Position numbers and translations under genes: made by a program. DNA of 64,000 bases from an uncultured Gammaproteobacteria bacterium (GTDB lineage Bacteria > Patescibacteriota > Microgenomatia > Woykebacterales > RBG-16-39-9b), in the NCBI GenBank assembly GCA_964360785.1, contig CAYHXX010000001.1, forward strand, positions 73,334-137,333, in the 5' to 3' direction. Within the stretch, counting starts at the first letter, position 1; each line of letters starts with the position of its first letter. The notes beneath the pieces were generated by a model, which was given only the letters and a program-made list of their open reading frames with translations, was not told the DNA's origin and did not search any database. This document shows positions 13,700 through 25,412 of the stretch, in pieces.

Positions 13700-14212
13700 C
13701 TATGGAAAAGTTATTCTGTCACCTACTTTAAGATTATTTTCTTTGAAAAAGCCGGCGTTTACTTCCAGAACATTTGTGACAACTTGGGGTGAAGAGAAAG
13801 TTGGAATGTCTTCCATGGTTGGAATAGGAGCATTTTCCTCAACTCCCACGATGATCCCATCAGCGATCCAAATAATATCAATTGGAAATCTCATACCCCT
13901 CATCCAGAAACTAGCAACTTGTTTTTTGTCCAAAACAAAATACATCCCAGAACCTTCCTCGAGTGAATTACGATAAGACAGCCCAGTAACTATTGCTGCC
14001 TGTGTGTCAGCGATCTCCACGTTTATAACCTTATCCCCTACCTCCAGTTTCTTTTTTTCTAAAGTATTGGAGGTGCTACTTGCAGTCTTATTAAATGTTT
14101 GGGTATTGGAGTTGGAACTGTTTTCTCTAAAACTTAAGTAAATCGCGATTAAAATTACAGACAGCAAGAAAGCTATAACCACGATTTTCTCTTTTGGATG
14201 CAGCAGATGCAT
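13700..14212 (-). CDS. DUF192/COG1430 family protein
   Basis: GLSYR...GMYFVL...ASFWMRGMRFPIDIIWIADGIIVGV matches the DUF192 signature (GLM.R...FWM.N...PLDI.F.D). Confidence 0.6.
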   Translation of the reverse strand: MHLLHPKEKIVVIAFLLSVILIAIYLSFRENSSNSNTQTFNKTASSTSNTLEKKKLEVGDKVINVEIADTQAAIVTGLSYRNSLEEGSGMYFVLDKKQVASFWMRGMRFPIDIIWIADGIIVGVEENAPIPTMEDIPTFSSPQVVTNVLEVNAGFFKENNLKVGDRITFP

Positions 14213-15801: not shown

Positions 15802-17004
15802 ATGCCACACACTACTTCGAAACGCTCTTCCTGGATGCATCTGGACATGGACTGTTTCTTTGCATCTGTCGAAATCAAACTAAACCCTTCACTCAAAGGT
15901 AAACCTGTATTAGTTGGTGGTGTTAATCCCCAAGGAAAAAATGTTCCTCGCGGAGTGATCGCGACGGCTTCCTATGAAGCCCGGAAGTTTGGTTGCAAAT
16001 CGGGAATGCCGCTTTATCAAGCTTTGAGACTGTGCCCAAACGCTGTCGTGGTCGGTGGGCACTATGAGGACTACATTGCGTGTTCTGACCAAGTCATGGA
16101 GATTTGTGCTCGCTACGCTCCGCGAGTTAAGCAGATCGGTATTGACGAAGCTTTCTTGGATTTTTCTAACACTGAGATTCTGTATTCCGATCTGAAAATA
16201 GTTGCTGAACAGATCCGTGCGGATATAAAAAAAGAGCTTGGTATCACTGCTTCGATTGGACTAGCGGCTACTAAAGTTTGTGCCAAAGTCGCCTCAGATT
16301 TTCATAAACCAGATGGTTTTACCTATGTTTCAGAAGGTTCTGAGAAGAGTTTTCTCGCTCCCCTACCACTGCGGGATTTACCCGGAATTGGACATAAGAT
16401 GGAAGAGTATTTCCATCGCTTGGGTGTCAAAACTCTGGGAGAATTAGCAGCAGTTCATTTTAAAAATATTGAAAATTGGGGCAAGTTTGCGGTCAATTTG
16501 TGGGAAGCTGCCAATGGAGTTGACAACATTTGGTTTACCCCGCACGTTGAAGTTAAATCTATCTCTCGTAGCGAAACTTTTTATCGTGATACACCTGACG
16601 AAGACTTTATCCTGGCGATGCTACGCAAACTGACTGAAAGTGTGGGAACTGAAGCTCGCACTGCGGGTTATCAGGGACGCACAGTTCACGTCACGATCCG
16701 TTACAAAGATTTTCGGACACTTAGTCGCCAGCGAGTTCTTACTTCCCCGACAAATGTGACCAAAGAAATCTATGATTTGGGTGAAACTCTGCTCAAAGAA
16801 CTTTGGGACTCTCGGACACCGTTGCGGTTGGTCGGAATTGGCTTAACCCAGTTTGGGGAAACGATTCAGCAATCTTTGTTTGGCAGAGAGCATGACAAAA
16901 GATTGGAGTTGGAGAAAAGAATAGATACGCTCAAGGAAAGGTTTGGCAAAGAAGCAGTTAAACCCTTATTCCTTCTTTACCTAAATTCCAGTGTCAGACA
17001 CTGA
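15802..17004 (+). CDS. dinB: DNA polymerase IV (Y-family, DinB)
   Basis: HLDMDCFFASVE is the catalytic DMD motif. Thumb and little-finger region conserved. The start could instead be the internal ATG at 15835. Confidence 0.85.
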   Translation: MPHTTSKRSSWMHLDMDCFFASVEIKLNPSLKGKPVLVGGVNPQGKNVPRGVIATASYEARKFGCKSGMPLYQALRLCPNAVVVGGHYEDYIACSDQVMEICARYAPRVKQIGIDEAFLDFSNTEILYSDLKIVAEQIRADIKKELGITASIGLAATKVCAKVASDFHKPDGFTYVSEGSEKSFLAPLPLRDLPGIGHKMEEYFHRLGVKTLGELAAVHFKNIENWGKFAVNLWEAANGVDNIWFTPHVEVKSISRSETFYRDTPDEDFILAMLRKLTESVGTEARTAGYQGRTVHVTIRYKDFRTLSRQRVLTSPTNVTKEIYDLGETLLKELWDSRTPLRLVGIGLTQFGETIQQSLFGREHDKRLELEKRIDTLKERFGKEAVKPLFLLYLNSSVRH

Positions 17005-17067: not shown

Positions 17068-17595
17068 CTAGAATTGACAAATTCTTTGTAATCTTCCACT
17101 GGACCTTTTTTCGAGAAATAAGCAAGTTAACCTCTCATCAACGAAACTCATTTCCTCTATTCCTAAGTAGTGTCTATAACTAGTCCAAGGATATTCCTCT
17201 GGTTTCTTTACTAAGCCTGCACTACTCGGATTCAAATGAATGTAACGGCTAAGATGAACCAAATATTCATCAGTTGTTACATCAACATGCTTAAAGCGAG
17301 CTTCAAACAGATGCCCGGTTCGGTGATAACGCAGGTTAAAATAGTTTGCGTAGGCTGTAGTCAAAGTTTGCATGAATCTAGAAAGTGATAGATCAGAGTC
17401 TTGTCTTACAAGTAAGTGTATGTGATTGGGCATAAGAACAAAGGCTAGAATGCGGATCAAGAATTTATGGGAGTATTTACTTAGGTTAAAGGTAAACCTT
17501 ATAAAATCCCCATCATCAATAAAAAGATTCTGGTGATTAGCCCGACTGGTTAAATGGTAAATTGAATTTCTAAGGAAAATTCTTGGGGGTCTCAT
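17068..17595 (-). CDS. HUH tyrosine transposase, IS200-like/RAYT (COG1943)
   Basis: HUH motif VLMPNHIHLLV and catalytic-Tyr helix SRYIHLNP. About 175 aa. The ORF track's GTG start at 17610 overlaps a REP copy, so the ATG at 17595 is preferred. Confidence 0.8.
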   Translation of the reverse strand: MRPPRIFLRNSIYHLTSRANHQNLFIDDGDFIRFTFNLSKYSHKFLIRILAFVLMPNHIHLLVRQDSDLSLSRFMQTLTTAYANYFNLRYHRTGHLFEARFKHVDVTTDEYLVHLSRYIHLNPSSAGLVKKPEEYPWTSYRHYLGIEEMSFVDERLTCLFLEKRSSGRLQRICQF

Positions 17596-17675
17596 ACCTG
17601 TGTCTGACACTTAATACTATAAACATATTAGCTTTAAAAGTGCTTGTCAATACAGGTTAAACTAGTATTATTTAG

Positions 17676-17691
17676 TGTCTGACACTGGTTA
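17676..17691. repeat. REP-like palindrome CAGTGTCTGACACTGG (five copies in the window)
   Basis: Copies at 16989-17004 (inverted), 17597-17611, 17676-17691, 21693-21706 (degenerate AGTGTCTGGCACTG) and 23357-23372. All were found by reading the sequence. Confidence 0.7.
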
Positions 17692-17702
17692 GTTGAAAAA
17701 AG

Positions 17703-17740
17703 GTGCCGGCAAAGCTTTGGGGGCAGTGCCGGCGTGGATA
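17703..17740 (-). terminator. terminator after the SAM decarboxylase gene (GCCGGC-N17-GCCGGC + UUUUUU on minus sense)
   Basis: Minus-sense CGCCGGCACTGCCCCCAAAGCTTTGCCGGCACCTTTTTTCAA. Confidence 0.5.
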
Positions 17741-17777
17741 GGTACGGCCAAGTGGTTGTTCTGTTTATCGTCGTCCA

Positions 17778-18200
17778 TCAGCTTCCTACTGTCGCCGCTA
17801 CTTCTATCCGCTCGTCTCGGTTGAGCGGGATGCTCTGCGCGACGTCGTGCGGGTACTCCAGACCGCGCTCAAGCTTGTGAGTACGAGTATCCTGCAGCTC
17901 GAAAGCATCAACGATTCGCTCGATTGCGGGAAGCTCGTCGAAGCCCTTGCAGCTGAAGATGTCGACCCACACCTGTCTGTGCTCTGGGAACGTGTGGACG
18001 GCGATGTGGCTCTCGGCGATGAGCACAAAGCCAGACACGCCCCAGTCATCTGGGTTGTCTCCACGGTATTCGAAGACATGTGGCTCCGAGATCTTCGTCA
18101 TCCCGATCTCTGTCGGGTAGCGGTCGAGCAGGTTGCGGACCCGTTCTTCGCTACCGAGCAAAGCCGCGTTTCCGCCAAACCCATCGATCGTTACGTGCAT
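17778..18200 (-). CDS. speH: S-adenosylmethionine decarboxylase proenzyme (SpeH/class 1b)
   Basis: FVLIAESHIAVHTFPE is the self-processing Glu-Ser site region of pyruvoyl SAM decarboxylases. 140 aa, about 58% GC, SD GGAGGGACGAC before the ATG. Confidence 0.75.
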   Translation of the reverse strand: MHVTIDGFGGNAALLGSEERVRNLLDRYPTEIGMTKISEPHVFEYRGDNPDDWGVSGFVLIAESHIAVHTFPEHRQVWVDIFSCKGFDELPAIERIVDAFELQDTRTHKLERGLEYPHDVAQSIPLNRDERIEVAATVGS

Positions 18201-21656: not shown

Positions 21657-21737
21657 CCCTCAAGAGTCAAGTATTAGTTGGGTTCGAATTTAAGTGTCTG
21701 GCACTGTGCCTAGGGTCTGATCCTAAAATAAGTGATT

Positions 21738-21760
21738 ACGTCGCACAATGGTTGTTTTTT
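21738..21760. repeat. direct repeat ACGTCGCACAAT-(TTG.TTTTTT), copy 1 (copy 2 at 22368-22390)
   Basis: An identical 12-mer plus a similar T-rich tail flank the 21793..22338 gene on both sides. Confidence 0.6.
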
Positions 21761-21792
21761 TGTTCTAATTTAGTTAAAGTTTATTAAGCAAT

Positions 21793-22338
21793 ATGGTTAG
21801 TGAAAAGCATAAAATAAGCAGAAAAGGGTTTTTATTGGCTATAATCTTCGGGCCAATATTTGGTCTTGCAATCACTTTTATCGTCATGGCGTTTTTAGGG
21901 GAAGTATTTCCAAATTACTATGAGGATTCTCTTGCATTTTCGTTATTGGGTGTACCACTTTCGTATTTGGCCGCTAGAATTATTTATGTAAATCAACTTT
22001 TAAACCCATATTTCTTTAGATATTTAATATACCTTAATGCTTATATAAGTTTCAAAAATAAGAGAGAAAAATATATAATTCTTTCAAATACGCATCAAGA
22101 TTTTGTCGGTAAATTTACTCTACTCATTGATGCTTTGAATCTAGCCTTTATTATCAGTTTTGGTAGTAATTTCATACTGAGTTTTATCTTAATAGGTATT
22201 TTCGGGAACGAAACCTTTTTAGTGTTATTTATTTTTACATTACCACTAATGATTTTATTGACTTGGCTCTTTTACATTAAACTTCTAAAAAACCCTTATC
22301 TCTTCTTAATTAAGAGGCTAACCCGAAGTCTTTTTTAG
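21793..22338 (+). CDS. hypothetical polytopic membrane protein (very AT-rich, about 30% GC)
   Basis: 181-aa ORF with about five hydrophobic helices. Flanked by direct repeats and REP copies. Confidence 0.5.
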   Translation: MVSEKHKISRKGFLLAIIFGPIFGLAITFIVMAFLGEVFPNYYEDSLAFSLLGVPLSYLAARIIYVNQLLNPYFFRYLIYLNAYISFKNKREKYIILSNTHQDFVGKFTLLIDALNLAFIISFGSNFILSFILIGIFGNETFLVLFIFTLPLMILLTWLFYIKLLKNPYLFLIKRLTRSLF

Positions 22339-22417
22339 CTTTAGTAAGCATAGAAACATACACTTCCACGTCGCACAATATTTGCTTTTTTAGCCTCCGT
22401 GCTGTTAAAATTTATAT

Positions 22418-23341
22418 ATGTCCCCACTGTCCAAACTTACTACTGATTTTCTCGAGCATCTTGAGGTTGAAAAAAATGCCTCGCAACTGACAATCCGTAA
22501 TTACGATCATTATCTGAAAAGATTTCTCGGTTTTGCTGGCGATATTGATCCAAAAGATATAAACCAAGAAATGGTGCGAAAATATCGAGTTTTCTTAGCC
22601 CGCTATATAGATGAGCGTTCTGGCCTTCCTTTGAAAAAAGTCACTCAAAACTATTTTGTGATTGCTCTGCGAGCTTTCCTGCGTTATTTAGCTAAAAATG
22701 ACGTGGAGACGCTAGCAGCTGAAAAAATTGAGCTTGGGGATCAGGATCCGCGGCCGATTAAAGTTCTGGATAATGATCAGCTCTCTCGCCTACTTTCATC
22801 TCCGGAGATTTCAAAAATTGATGGTGTGCGGGATAAGGCTATTTTGGAAACGCTTTTCTCGACTGGATTGCGGGTTAGCGAATTAACTAAATTAAACAGA
22901 GATAAAATTAACTTAGAACGACGAGAGTTTGGGATTGTGGGTAAAGGGGGAAAAGAACGAGTAGTTTTTATTTCTGATGCTGCGGCCGAGTGGATTGGCC
23001 GTTACCTGGCGCAGCGAGCTGATCGGTACAACCCATTGTTCATCCGTTACTCTGGTAAAGAAGATCCGGCCAAGGGTGGGGAAAAAATGCGTCTCACTCC
23101 CCGATCAATCGAAAGAATTCTTGAAAAATATGTCCGAAAAGCCCAAATACCAATCAAGGCTTCACCGCACACCTTGCGGCATTCCTTCGCTACGGACTTG
23201 TTAATAAATGGAGCTGATATCCGCAGTGTCCAAGAGATGCTCGGTCATGCCAATATTTCCACCACCCAGATCTATACTCATATTACAAATAGACATCTCA
23301 AAGATGTCCACAAAGCCTTTCACAGCGGCAACAAAGTTTAA
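22418..23341 (+). CDS. tyrosine site-specific recombinase, XerC/XerD family
   Basis: R...LRHSFATDLLINGADIRSVQEMLGHANISTTQIYTH is the catalytic R-H-R-Y region. N-terminal SAM-like domain. Confidence 0.85.
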   Translation: MSPLSKLTTDFLEHLEVEKNASQLTIRNYDHYLKRFLGFAGDIDPKDINQEMVRKYRVFLARYIDERSGLPLKKVTQNYFVIALRAFLRYLAKNDVETLAAEKIELGDQDPRPIKVLDNDQLSRLLSSPEISKIDGVRDKAILETLFSTGLRVSELTKLNRDKINLERREFGIVGKGGKERVVFISDAAAEWIGRYLAQRADRYNPLFIRYSGKEDPAKGGEKMRLTPRSIERILEKYVRKAQIPIKASPHTLRHSFATDLLINGADIRSVQEMLGHANISTTQIYTHITNRHLKDVHKAFHSGNKV

Positions 23342-23382
23342 CCTAAATTATAGTCTCAGTGTCTGACACTGGTTGGAAAAAG

Positions 23383-23417
23383 GAAAAAAGTTCCCGCCTT
23401 CAGAGTTCGTCCAAAGG
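23383..23417 (-). terminator. terminator (CCCGCCTT-N13-AAGGCGGG + U tract on minus sense)
   Basis: Minus-sense CCCGCCTTTGGACGAACTCTGAAGGCGGGAACTTTTTTCCTTTTT, downstream of the 23446..23667 gene. Confidence 0.55.
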
Positions 23418-23445
23418 CGGGGTGTGGTTTCTACGACAACTAGCG

Positions 23446-23667
23446 TTAGTTGGCGAAGACGACAATCGGTCGTGAGATTCCCAGCAGGATACACAGCTCT
23501 TTGTCGAATTCGTTGTCTGCAAGCTCGCCGGCGAAGAACCGTGAATACAGCTCTCTCACGGCTTGCTTGCGAGCGTGGGTGAGATTGCTGGTGTTGCCGA
23601 TGGCAGCGGCCACGCGACGGGGATCGTTGGACCTCCGAATCAGATCACGAAGTTGACGTGGATGCAC
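23446..23667 (-). CDS. hypothetical small protein (73 aa, GTG start)
   Basis: GGATGGAGG SD 7 nt before the GTG. About 58% GC. Own terminator. Confidence 0.45.
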   Translation of the reverse strand: MHPRQLRDLIRRSNDPRRVAAAIGNTSNLTHARKQAVRELYSRFFAGELADNEFDKELCILLGISRPIVVFAN

Positions 23668-23808
23668 TAATTGACCTCCATCCTAAATTTGCCCGAAGCT
23701 GAGATATTAACATAATTGAATAGGTTTTTCAAGTGTTGTAGTAGAAAGGCCCCCAATAATCAATGACTGATCTGGGAGCCTTATTTGAAGTAGCTCACTA
23801 TAGTTACT

Positions 23809-24066
23809 CTAACCTAGTTGTCTGATTACTGCGGTTGCGTAGTTGTATTGATCTCTCCAAGGATGGCCATTGGCACCAACAGCATATTTGTATCCCTCCC
23901 AGTTTTCGAATAATTTGCTTGCTGTAGCAGTGTCGATGATGTACGCCTCTTGGTATCTGGCAATTTCAGCACGTATCAGTTCATCAGCGGCACGCACATT
24001 GTCTCCAATTGTATCCTCCGGACGTGTATTGCAAATCAAAACTCTAAGAAGGCTGTTCTTAGTCAT
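23809..24066 (-). CDS. hypothetical small protein (85 aa)
   Basis: GTAAGGGAGGGATCATG is a strong SD. Start MTKNSLLRVL. The ORF track's longer 23809..24117 form starts at an upstream ATG. Confidence 0.45.
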   Translation of the reverse strand: MTKNSLLRVLICNTRPEDTIGDNVRAADELIRAEIARYQEAYIIDTATASKLFENWEGYKYAVGANGHPWRDQYNYATAVIRQLG

Positions 24067-24179
24067 GATCCCTCCCTTACTACAGAAAAGATACGGCGTA
24101 TTCAAAGAAATTGTCAATGTTTTTAAAAAGTAATTAAACTTTAACTAACGCAATTTGATTTGATCTGTTAATATCAACA

Positions 24180-25412
24180 ATGATGCTAGAAAAAGTCGAT
24201 CCTGAGCTTTCGCAGCTAATAAAAAAAGAAGAACTTCGCCAGAAAACTTCTCTTAATCTAGTGGCTTCCGAGAACTATGTTTCCAAAGCAGTTCGTGAGG
24301 CCTCTGGTTCGGTCCTAACCAACAAGTACGCTGAAGGATACCCCAAGAAGCGTTATTATGGCGGTACCCGCTTGATTGACGAAATTGAGCAGCTGGCGAT
24401 TGATCGCGCCAAGAAATTATTTGGTGCGGAACATATTAATGTCCAACCCTATTCTGGTACCAACCCAAATCTAGCGGTTTACTTTTCCGCAATGGAGCCA
24501 GGTGATACTGCTCTGGCAATGAATTTGCAGGCTGGTGGCCACCTTTCCCACGGCAGTCCGATGTCGATTTCGGGAAAAGTATTTCGCTTTGTACAATACG
24601 GTGTAAATCTTGAAACCGAACTTCTCGATTACGATGAGATTGAGTCAATTGCCAAAAAGGAAAAACCAAAACTGATCGTGGCTGGGGCATCTGCCTATTC
24701 CCGTTTGATTGATTACAAAAAATTCCGCGAAATTGCTGACAAAGTTGGTGCTTTACTTCTAGTAGATATGGCGCACATTGCTGGTTTGGTAGCTGCTGGA
24801 GTTATACCTTCTCCTATCCCCCATGCTCATTTTGTTACCACCTCTACCCATAAAACCTTAAGAGGACCTCGCGGCGGAATGATTCTTTGTAAGACCGAGT
24901 TTGCGGAAAGAGTTGATAAAATGCTTTTTCCCGGTATCCAAGGCGGACCGCTTGAGAATATTATCGCTGCCAAGGCAGTTGCCTTTGAGGAAGCTTCAAA
25001 GCCGGAGTTCAAAACCCACTCTCTTCAAATTATAAAGAACGCTAAAGTTCTAGCAGATGAACTTGCGAAGGAAGGGTTTAGGATTGTTTCTGGCGGAACC
25101 GATAATCATTTATTGAATATTGATTTTGGTAGTGAAGGTCTGACTGGGAGAGAAGCTGAAGCGATTTTGGAATCAGTTAATATTATCGTTAATCGTGAGG
25201 TTGTCCCACGCGACACGCGTAAACCTTATATTGCCTCCGGAATTCGACTCGGAACCTCGGTTGTTACTACCAGAGATATGGGACCAGACCAAATGAAACA
25301 AATAGCAGAATTGGTTGCCAGAGCTCTGAAACTGGGGGTAGATTCTGACAAACAAGAACAAATCATTTACGAAGTGACACAACTAACCTCTCACTTTGTC
25401 TTGCCCGACTAG
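24180..25412 (+). CDS. glyA: serine hydroxymethyltransferase
   Basis: [11 protein letters not shown]...[13 protein letters not shown]...[14 protein letters not shown] covers the PLP-Lys region. 410 aa. Confidence 0.95.

Follow-up and report, generated by a model that had tools for sequence, protein, structure and literature searches.

Single-recombinase Xer/dif systems occur in streptococci and lactococci (XerS/difSL), in epsilon-proteobacteria (XerH/difH) and in archaea (XerA/dif), and in the first two dif is known to be linked to the gene of its recombinase (PMC2731167). Here we describe a locus of related type in a 64-kb stretch of DNA (contig CAYHXX010000001.1 of assembly GCA_964360785.1, positions 73,334 to 137,333), which at its full length is called the window in what follows. 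The locus comprises an AT-rich gene for a membrane protein, a co-directional xer gene downstream of it, and a 12-nt direct repeat, ACGTCGCACAAT, in front of each gene. This repeat corresponds to one arm of the dif-like site found in relatives, and it is conserved and enriched at xer promoters. We propose, with a probability that we put at roughly 60%, that the unit consists of tandem Xer-operator promoters, where Xer would bind an isolated dif arm and modulate transcription of both xer and the membrane gene upstream.

The analysis is based on the window and on related xer loci (labelled L with a number), of which the genome loci span 12.9 kb each and the metagenome loci form a second, independent set. 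The relatives carry xer at 50-93% identity and are metagenome-assembled genomes (MAGs) labelled Daviesbacteria, Microgenomates or simply Patescibacteria; the source of the window is a groundwater Patescibacterium near Daviesbacteria. Like the described single-recombinase systems, the locus has one Xer-type recombinase, and no Xer paralogue is found in the 64 kb. The dif-like sites of relatives are likewise near-palindromic with similar arms, and likewise linked to xer, which they precede by 0.05-5 kb on the same strand. The window differs in that it holds half-sites only, embedded in putative promoters, and in that its recombinase falls below every equivalog cut-off. Judged by its sequence, the locus probably works in function like the dif-linked single-recombinase modules.

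Other described systems bring accessory genes next to Xer sites. Integrative mobile elements exploiting Xer (IMEX), among them CTX-phi, TLC-phi, the gonococcal GGI and Legionella LME-1, integrate at chromosomal dif. In the dif modules of Acinetobacter each boundary is a complete 28-bp pdif site made up of an XerC arm, a 6-bp spacer and an XerD arm, and the sites stand in inverse orientation (PMC13141974). The locus resembles both in that an accessory gene is bracketed by dif-related sequences, with the host Xer as the presumed recombinase. It differs from them in having two direct single arms with non-identical spacers and no full dif, and in that its sites appear to double as conserved promoters; it is neither an Acinetobacter-type dif module nor a typical IMEX.

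A preliminary description of this stretch had read the unit as an exchangeable cassette, integron-like or mobilised by XerCD, and bounded by repetitive extragenic palindromic (REP) elements. An integron does share with the locus a tyrosine recombinase beside a short promoter-proximal gene flanked by repeats. The integron comparison nevertheless fails, as the recombinase is not an IntI (126.3 bits against a cut-off of 265 for TIGR02249, and 75.6 against 435 for NF011946), and scans for repeats and inverted repeats find no attC-like hairpin or imperfect palindrome at either boundary of the segment. The gene of the window also lies upstream of the recombinase, co-directional and with a predicted promoter of its own, whereas integron cassettes lie downstream of attI and divergent from intI.

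The direct repeats and the dif-like sites of relatives

The 12-mer occurs in exactly two exact copies in the 64 kb, spaced 630 nt apart (Table 1); allowing mismatches, the direct repeat reaches 24 nt (88% identity). The preliminary description had noticed these repeats around the membrane gene and taken them for att or dif-like recombination sites. Their likeness to dif is borne out, because the 12-mer is identical to positions 1-12 of a 28-mer in relatives, that is, to its left arm and first spacer base; their role as recombination sites is not, as detailed below. A search for further exact copies gave none in the 64 kb beyond these two, and in relatives the half-site was found 5' of xer. The possibility of a generic intergenic motif, which the preliminary description had itself raised, was rejected, as only these two copies are present in the window and the frequency of the motif outside xer promoters and dif sites is near a rough chance estimate.

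The 28-mer of relatives, for example ACGTCGCACAA-TGTATC-TTATGCGACGT, is built of two 11-bp arms in inverted orientation, separated by a 6-bp spacer, and has the consensus [AT][CT]GTCG[CGT]ACAA-TGTATC/TGATAC-TT[AT]T[GA]CGAC[GA]T. It lies on the xer strand, 0.7-5 kb 5' of xer, at 11 genome loci, and nine or more metagenome loci have the same layout. Its position is fixed, always 3' of ruvC and a gene for a 260-aa membrane protein, at about 20 loci. The 28-mer has the classical dif layout and is close in sequence to proteobacterial dif (compare GGTGCGCATAATGTATATTATGTTAAAT of E. coli and ACTGCGCACAATGTATATTATGTTAAAT of Shewanella; PMC2731167). The likeness of its two arms fits a single-recombinase system. 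Position 7 of the arm varies freely (C, G or T) and gives no signal when half-site and dif arm are compared for covariation within single genomes.

We further note that the 28-mer is part of a Daviesbacteria-like module composed of ruvC, the 260-aa membrane gene, the 28-bp dif-like site, variable cargo (a surface-protein operon or pyrH) and xer, found at about 20 loci from two independent collections. In the literature searched there is no published description of this module or of dif in Patescibacteria, and the arrangement provides candidates for the dif site and for the dif-xer layout of Daviesbacteria and related Patescibacteria. In many Daviesbacteria (L012-L032 and L085-L110) xer is directly preceded by the gene for a surface protein, about 240 aa long, with a conserved C-terminal anchor (...ILTILGILGLALL); the stop codon of this gene often abuts or overlaps the xer start, which makes xer the last gene of a surface-protein operon. 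A structured RNA was considered for the hairpin-forming 28-mers and rejected, as Rfam gives no matches at the gathering threshold for the window and six loci, and similarity to dif accounts for the 28-mers. Dif-like sites of the form GTCGCACAAT-N6-TTNTGCGAC are also present in two IMG/VR viral contigs (L075:12355-12379, minus strand, and L076:687-711, plus strand) with no xer or ruvC homologue near; these contigs may be Xer-exploiting phages or elements of Patescibacteria.

The window itself has no full dif site. A dif profile built from the 11 genome sites scores the two window copies at 8.8 and 4.9, of which 8.8 is the best score in the 64 kb, while the real sites score at least 36. The second arm is missing at both copies, with a right-arm match at 4 of 11 positions, and the spacers, TGGTTG and TATTTG, are equal at only three of six positions. 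The copies are thus half-sites, and they also form part of what appear to be conserved promoters in species with a single copy; we consider them unlikely to act as recombination sites. Neither ruvC nor the 260-aa membrane gene is present in the window or in L004-L011. The absence of ruvC from the window suggests that the true dif of the source genome presumably lies elsewhere on the 497-kb contig.

Table 1. Features of the locus, with dif-like sites of related loci; positions are those of the window unless a locus label precedes them
Feature	Position	Strand	Remarks
Xer/dif half-site, copy 1, ACGTCGCACAAT	21738..21749	+	left arm and first spacer base of relatives' dif
Predicted promoter P1	21752..21780	+	-35 TTGTTT (21752-21757), 17-nt spacer, -10 TAAAGT (21775-21780), 12 nt to ATG
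Membrane protein gene, AT-rich, 181 aa	21793..22338	+	no credible homologue
Xer/dif half-site, copy 2, ACGTCGCACAAT	22368..22379	+	orthologous to the single copy 5' of xer in L004, L005, L006, L077, L079, L083
Predicted promoter P2 of xer	22382..22411	+	-35 TTGCTT (22382-22387), 18-nt spacer, -10 TAAAAT (22406-22411), 6 nt to ATG
Xer-family tyrosine recombinase, chromosomal, 307 aa	22418..23341	+	assigned by domains and synteny
Dif-like 28-mers in the conserved module	L014:780-807, L017:4892-4919, L023:758-785, L033:5253-5280, L035:3027-3054, others
Degenerate REP copy AGTGTCTGGCACTG	21693..21706	.	divergent intergenic region between M23 peptidase gene and membrane gene; no family hairpin
REP copy CAGTGTCTGACACTG ((C)AGTGTCTGACACTG)	23357..23371	.	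between convergent xer and orf73
RAYT gene, source of the REP family	17068..17595	-	flanked by REPs at 16989-17003 and 17598-17612; third REP at 17673-17687
Intrinsic terminator hairpin, possibly bidirectional	23393..23421	-	terminator score on minus strand
Orphan ORF orf73, 73 aa, 56% GC	23446..23667	-	no counterpart in relatives

Putative half-site promoters at xer

An alignment of eight orthologous promoters from the window's clade gives the pattern CGTCGnAnAAT (invariant), 1-2 nt, TTGnnn, 17-18 nt of variable sequence, TAnnnT, 6-7 nt (12 in P1), ATG. We infer that the aligned element is a -35/-10 promoter in which an Xer arm abuts the -35 box and from which a leaderless or near-leaderless mRNA would be transcribed. 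The predicted -10 box of P2 is so close to the ATG that it implies a leaderless xer mRNA. The architecture of P1 is kept in L038, L007, L008 and L156, and its leader resembles that of L038. P2 in turn resembles, by alignment, the xer promoters of L004, L005 and L006.

Across relatives, the half-site promoter precedes either xer or a small membrane open reading frame (ORF) coupled to xer. A single half-site is found 5' of xer in L004 (93%), L005, L006, L077, L079, L080 and L083, and also at distant loci, down to a Saccharibacteria-labelled MAG at 51% identity. Half-sites are enriched about 35-fold in front of xer, with 19 matches in 20.7 kb upstream of xer genes and 36 in the remaining 1.35 Mb, dif sites being counted in the latter, and the independent metagenome set repeats the pattern. 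Four loci (L035, L111, L114 and L077) have tandem half-sites with no gene between them, which suggests that repetition of the half-site is a regulatory habit and no marker of cassette boundaries. A full palindromic site stands 3' of the xer promoter and 5' of the start codon in L123, L124 and L127.

These observations are consistent with a model in which each promoter carries one dif binding arm directly 5' of its -35 box. P1 would drive the lineage-specific membrane protein gene and P2 the housekeeping Xer that resolves chromosome dimers, and Xer, by binding the half-sites, would tune how strongly xer and its upstream neighbour are transcribed. Half-site operators at xer promoters have no description in the literature searched. 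Xer may control its own promoter and a neighbour gene through isolated dif half-sites. Such autoregulation, if true, would mean that a system generally seen as purely structural also has a level of regulation, and it would offer a simple sequence signature by which xer regulons and dif sites of uncultured bacteria could be found. The feature in the window is itself modest; the by-product of its analysis is a candidate dif together with a conserved Xer half-site promoter signature across Patescibacteria.

Several observations weigh against autoregulation through half-sites. The placement of the half-site varies, since in the window's clade some 38-43 nt separate its end from the start codon (with the start of the 10-mer near -48), and elsewhere it starts at -13 to -22. 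At the latter positions its TACAAT could be a -10 box, so that conservation could partly reflect promoter function alone. P1 and P2 match the sigma-70 consensus weakly and stay below the threshold of a consensus promoter scan, which does not list them. The window is also the only locus of about 150 in which a gene-sized segment is exactly bracketed by two half-site promoters, and its closest relatives resemble the product of a deletion between such promoters. The variable placement can be read in the other direction as well: combined with a conserved sequence, it suggests an Xer operator and not a fixed RNA-polymerase element.

A side observation concerns translation starts in the window. A Shine-Dalgarno sequence is missing from most window genes, and several have a TAnnnT hexamer 5-9 nt 5' of the start codon (for example 22406-22420, 24162-24182 and, on the minus strand, 13700-14212). 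Leaderless mRNAs may be common in the source organism.

The membrane gene, the recombinase and rival explanations

The membrane gene has a GC content of 30%, compared with 43% for the window, and its 181-aa product has at least four strongly hydrophobic segments, in agreement with the AT-rich membrane-protein gene of the preliminary description. An open frame of this length has a chance of about 1.4e-6 at the composition of the gene. The protein belongs to no Pfam or NCBIfam family, and searches of 5.8e9 and 1.84e9 proteins give it no credible homologue, the sole other match being weak and repetitive (E 3e-6); nor is the gene found in viral contigs. In L007, L008, L038, L081, L082 and L156 the same slot before xer holds a 66-80-aa two-helix membrane ORF, which is preceded by the half-site promoter and whose stop codon overlaps the xer start (ATGA). 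The slot is empty, with the promoter directly on xer, in L004, L005, L006, L077, L079 and L083, and two promoters with a gene between them are found in the window only. Compared by profile with the small ORFs of L007, L008 and L038, the 181-aa protein shows no significant similarity (E = 0.22, probability 0.3%), and the upstream flanks of the window and of relatives align no better than shuffled sequence (z about 0). The slot before xer is fast-evolving. Gain or loss of the membrane gene by recombination between the repeats is possible.

The recombinase matches Pfam PF00589 (Phage_integrase) over its full length (E = 9.4e-43, positions 1-170 of 172) and the N-terminal SAM-like PF02899. Its catalytic residues are R152, H251, R254, H277 and Y286, and the complete active site reported in the preliminary description is thus present. 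Against the equivalog cut-offs it scores 240 of 335 bits for XerC, 238 of 330 for XerD, 216.7 of 220 for XerA and 124 of 267 for XerS, and its best match among solved structures is Pyrococcus XerA (4a8e). These near-equal scores for XerC, XerD and XerA, none of which reaches a curated subtype, place the protein, as far as its sequence tells, in the Xer family at large. The gene order dinB-like, HD phosphohydrolase, orf327, [M23 peptidase], xer, SHMT (serine hydroxymethyltransferase), histidine kinase and p839 is conserved across relatives when the window proteins are mapped onto their loci. This synteny identifies xer as a vertically inherited core gene and not a passenger. We also note that xer of the window (22418-22423), of L004 (L004:6001) and of L006 starts with ATGTC(C/T), and the same letters open the small upstream ORFs of L007 (L007:5777) and L008 (L008:5780); the shared start hints that the state with the promoter directly on xer arose through in-frame deletion of a small ORF.

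The reading closest to the preliminary description is that the 630-bp segment, composed of the membrane gene and one promoter copy, is a micro-cassette which Xer integrates and excises at two direct single-arm sites, as in an IMEX with degenerate att. The empty-site junction would then read ...AAGTGATTACGTCGCACAATATTTGCTTTTTTAGCC... and the circle junction ...ACACTTCCACGTCGCACAATGGTTGTTTTTTTG.... The repeats are indeed direct, identical over the arm and first spacer base, beside the point where Xer enzymes cut, and the recombinase gene adjoins them. The six empty-slot relatives have exactly one copy, with a downstream flank of copy-2 type, which is the expected excision product, and the gene has no credible homologue and lies 13 GC points below the genome. 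IMEX with incomplete att also exist, the 22-bp att used by Legionella LME-1 being an example (10.1101/2021.09.12.459815). Set against this are the missing second arm, the low profile scores and the differing spacers reported above, as well as the role of the half-site as a seemingly fixed promoter element in one-copy species. Copy 1 and its leader are, moreover, orthologous to the small-ORF promoter of L038, unlike an imported att site, and the gene is found nowhere else, viral contigs included. Exact protein look-ups retrieve only three contigs, all from one population (Hainich groundwater, well H52), and all three have the two-copy state; the recombinase, the membrane protein and orf73 are each single-member 90% clusters, so that no strain-level variants were found. 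In the presence/absence comparison proposed for the 630-bp segment, the segment is missing in the closest relatives and present in all three assemblies of the same population. As the upstream flanks cannot be aligned with those of relatives, a precise insertion or deletion is conjectural. Altogether, no evidence of mobility was found for the exchangeable cassette of the preliminary description, its recombinase is the syntenic core Xer, and we regard the micro-cassette as improbable. The stronger form of the idea, that single-arm sites are functional minimal Xer substrates at which one housekeeping Xer inserts and excises a one-gene micro-cassette at its own promoter, seems to us slightly more doubtful again. 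If true, gene mobilisation would need just one dif arm per site, which could explain the species-specific, homologue-less genes at both xer flanks. A dif-like repeat beside a recombinase is by itself no evidence of a mobile cassette.

A tentative explanation, less likely than autoregulation though worth keeping in mind, dispenses with Xer and assumes that the promoter, of about 47 nt, was duplicated or deleted by ordinary recombination or slippage, and that the gene arose or diverged locally from the small two-helix ORF of the sister species. In its favour, the two copies share the whole promoter beyond the 12-mer (the motif, TTGnTT and GTTAAAnTTTA), the xer slot of sister species holds rapidly diverging small membrane ORFs, and the ATGTC(C/T) starts hint at past in-frame deletions. 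It leaves unexplained, however, why the 12-mer is identical to a dif arm and why CGTCG is conserved beside ACAAT across phylum-level distances, and the profile comparison with the small ORFs reported above lends it no significant support. By contrast, a mobile unit bounded by REPs, a 1.7-kb segment moved by the transposase encoded nearby (a REP-associated tyrosine transposase, RAYT), is hardly credible. Two REPs in the same orientation do flank the membrane gene and xer, and the RAYT gene lies 4 kb upstream. Yet xer occupies the same syntenic position in dozens of REP-free relatives, and the REP copy at 21693 is degenerate. REPs and REPINs are short elements that move by themselves, and they are not known to carry cargo genes. 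Of these explanations, we favour tandem Xer-operator promoters, under which the REPs would be unrelated passengers that spread from the RAYT gene into nearby intergenic spacers.

REP elements and flanking genes

The REP palindrome, (C)AGTGTCTGRCACTG, occurs at the five window loci listed in Table 1, all of them intergenic or at gene ends. The family has 9 strand matches where 0.62 are expected, and none of 100 shuffles reaches 9. The product of the flanked gene matches Pfam Y1_Tnp above the cut-off (E = 4.5e-13) and scores 74.3 bits with NCBIfam REP_Tyr_transpos, just under the cut-off of 80. As the palindromes flank a Y1_Tnp (RAYT) gene, they are genuine REPs (compare PMC2817692). The family resembles known REP/RAYT systems (Nunvar 2010, PMC2817692; REPINs, PMC3116915) in that short extragenic palindromes cluster around and flank a Y1-transposase gene; it differs in having 5 copies in 64 kb, a very short stem of 6 bp and a RAYT just below the NCBIfam cut-off. 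No copy is present in any syntenic related locus.

The two REP copies in the same orientation that the preliminary description had named are present, although one of them is degenerate, and they bound the unit by coincidence of position only, as intergenic REPs in the neighbourhood of a RAYT gene. As the REPs are genome-specific and xer stands at the same place in REP-free relatives, the REP pair did not bring the unit; it marks two intergenic spacers that lie within 6 kb of the RAYT gene. We further observe that two REPs (within 17673-17760 and 23357-23425) have a similar tail, GGTT.G..AAAAAGG, after which comes, in both cases, the minus-strand terminator of a gene with unusually high GC: AdoMetDC at 17778-18200 (59% GC) and orf73. 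The repeated REP unit may be longer than the palindrome.

The terminator placed after the recombinase in the preliminary description exists as a hairpin, but it scores on the minus strand and therefore terminates orf73, not primarily xer; the high-GC orphan gene of that description is orf73 itself. Together with orf102, orf73 occupies the minus strand between xer and SHMT (23446-24117); neither has a counterpart in related loci, and xer lies directly beside SHMT in L005 and L006. Both flanks of xer seem to collect species-specific, homologue-less genes. A tRNA or tmRNA attachment site was considered and rejected, as the sole tRNA of the window lies at 62 kb. GC skew in the 64 kb tracks gene orientation and has no clear extremum.

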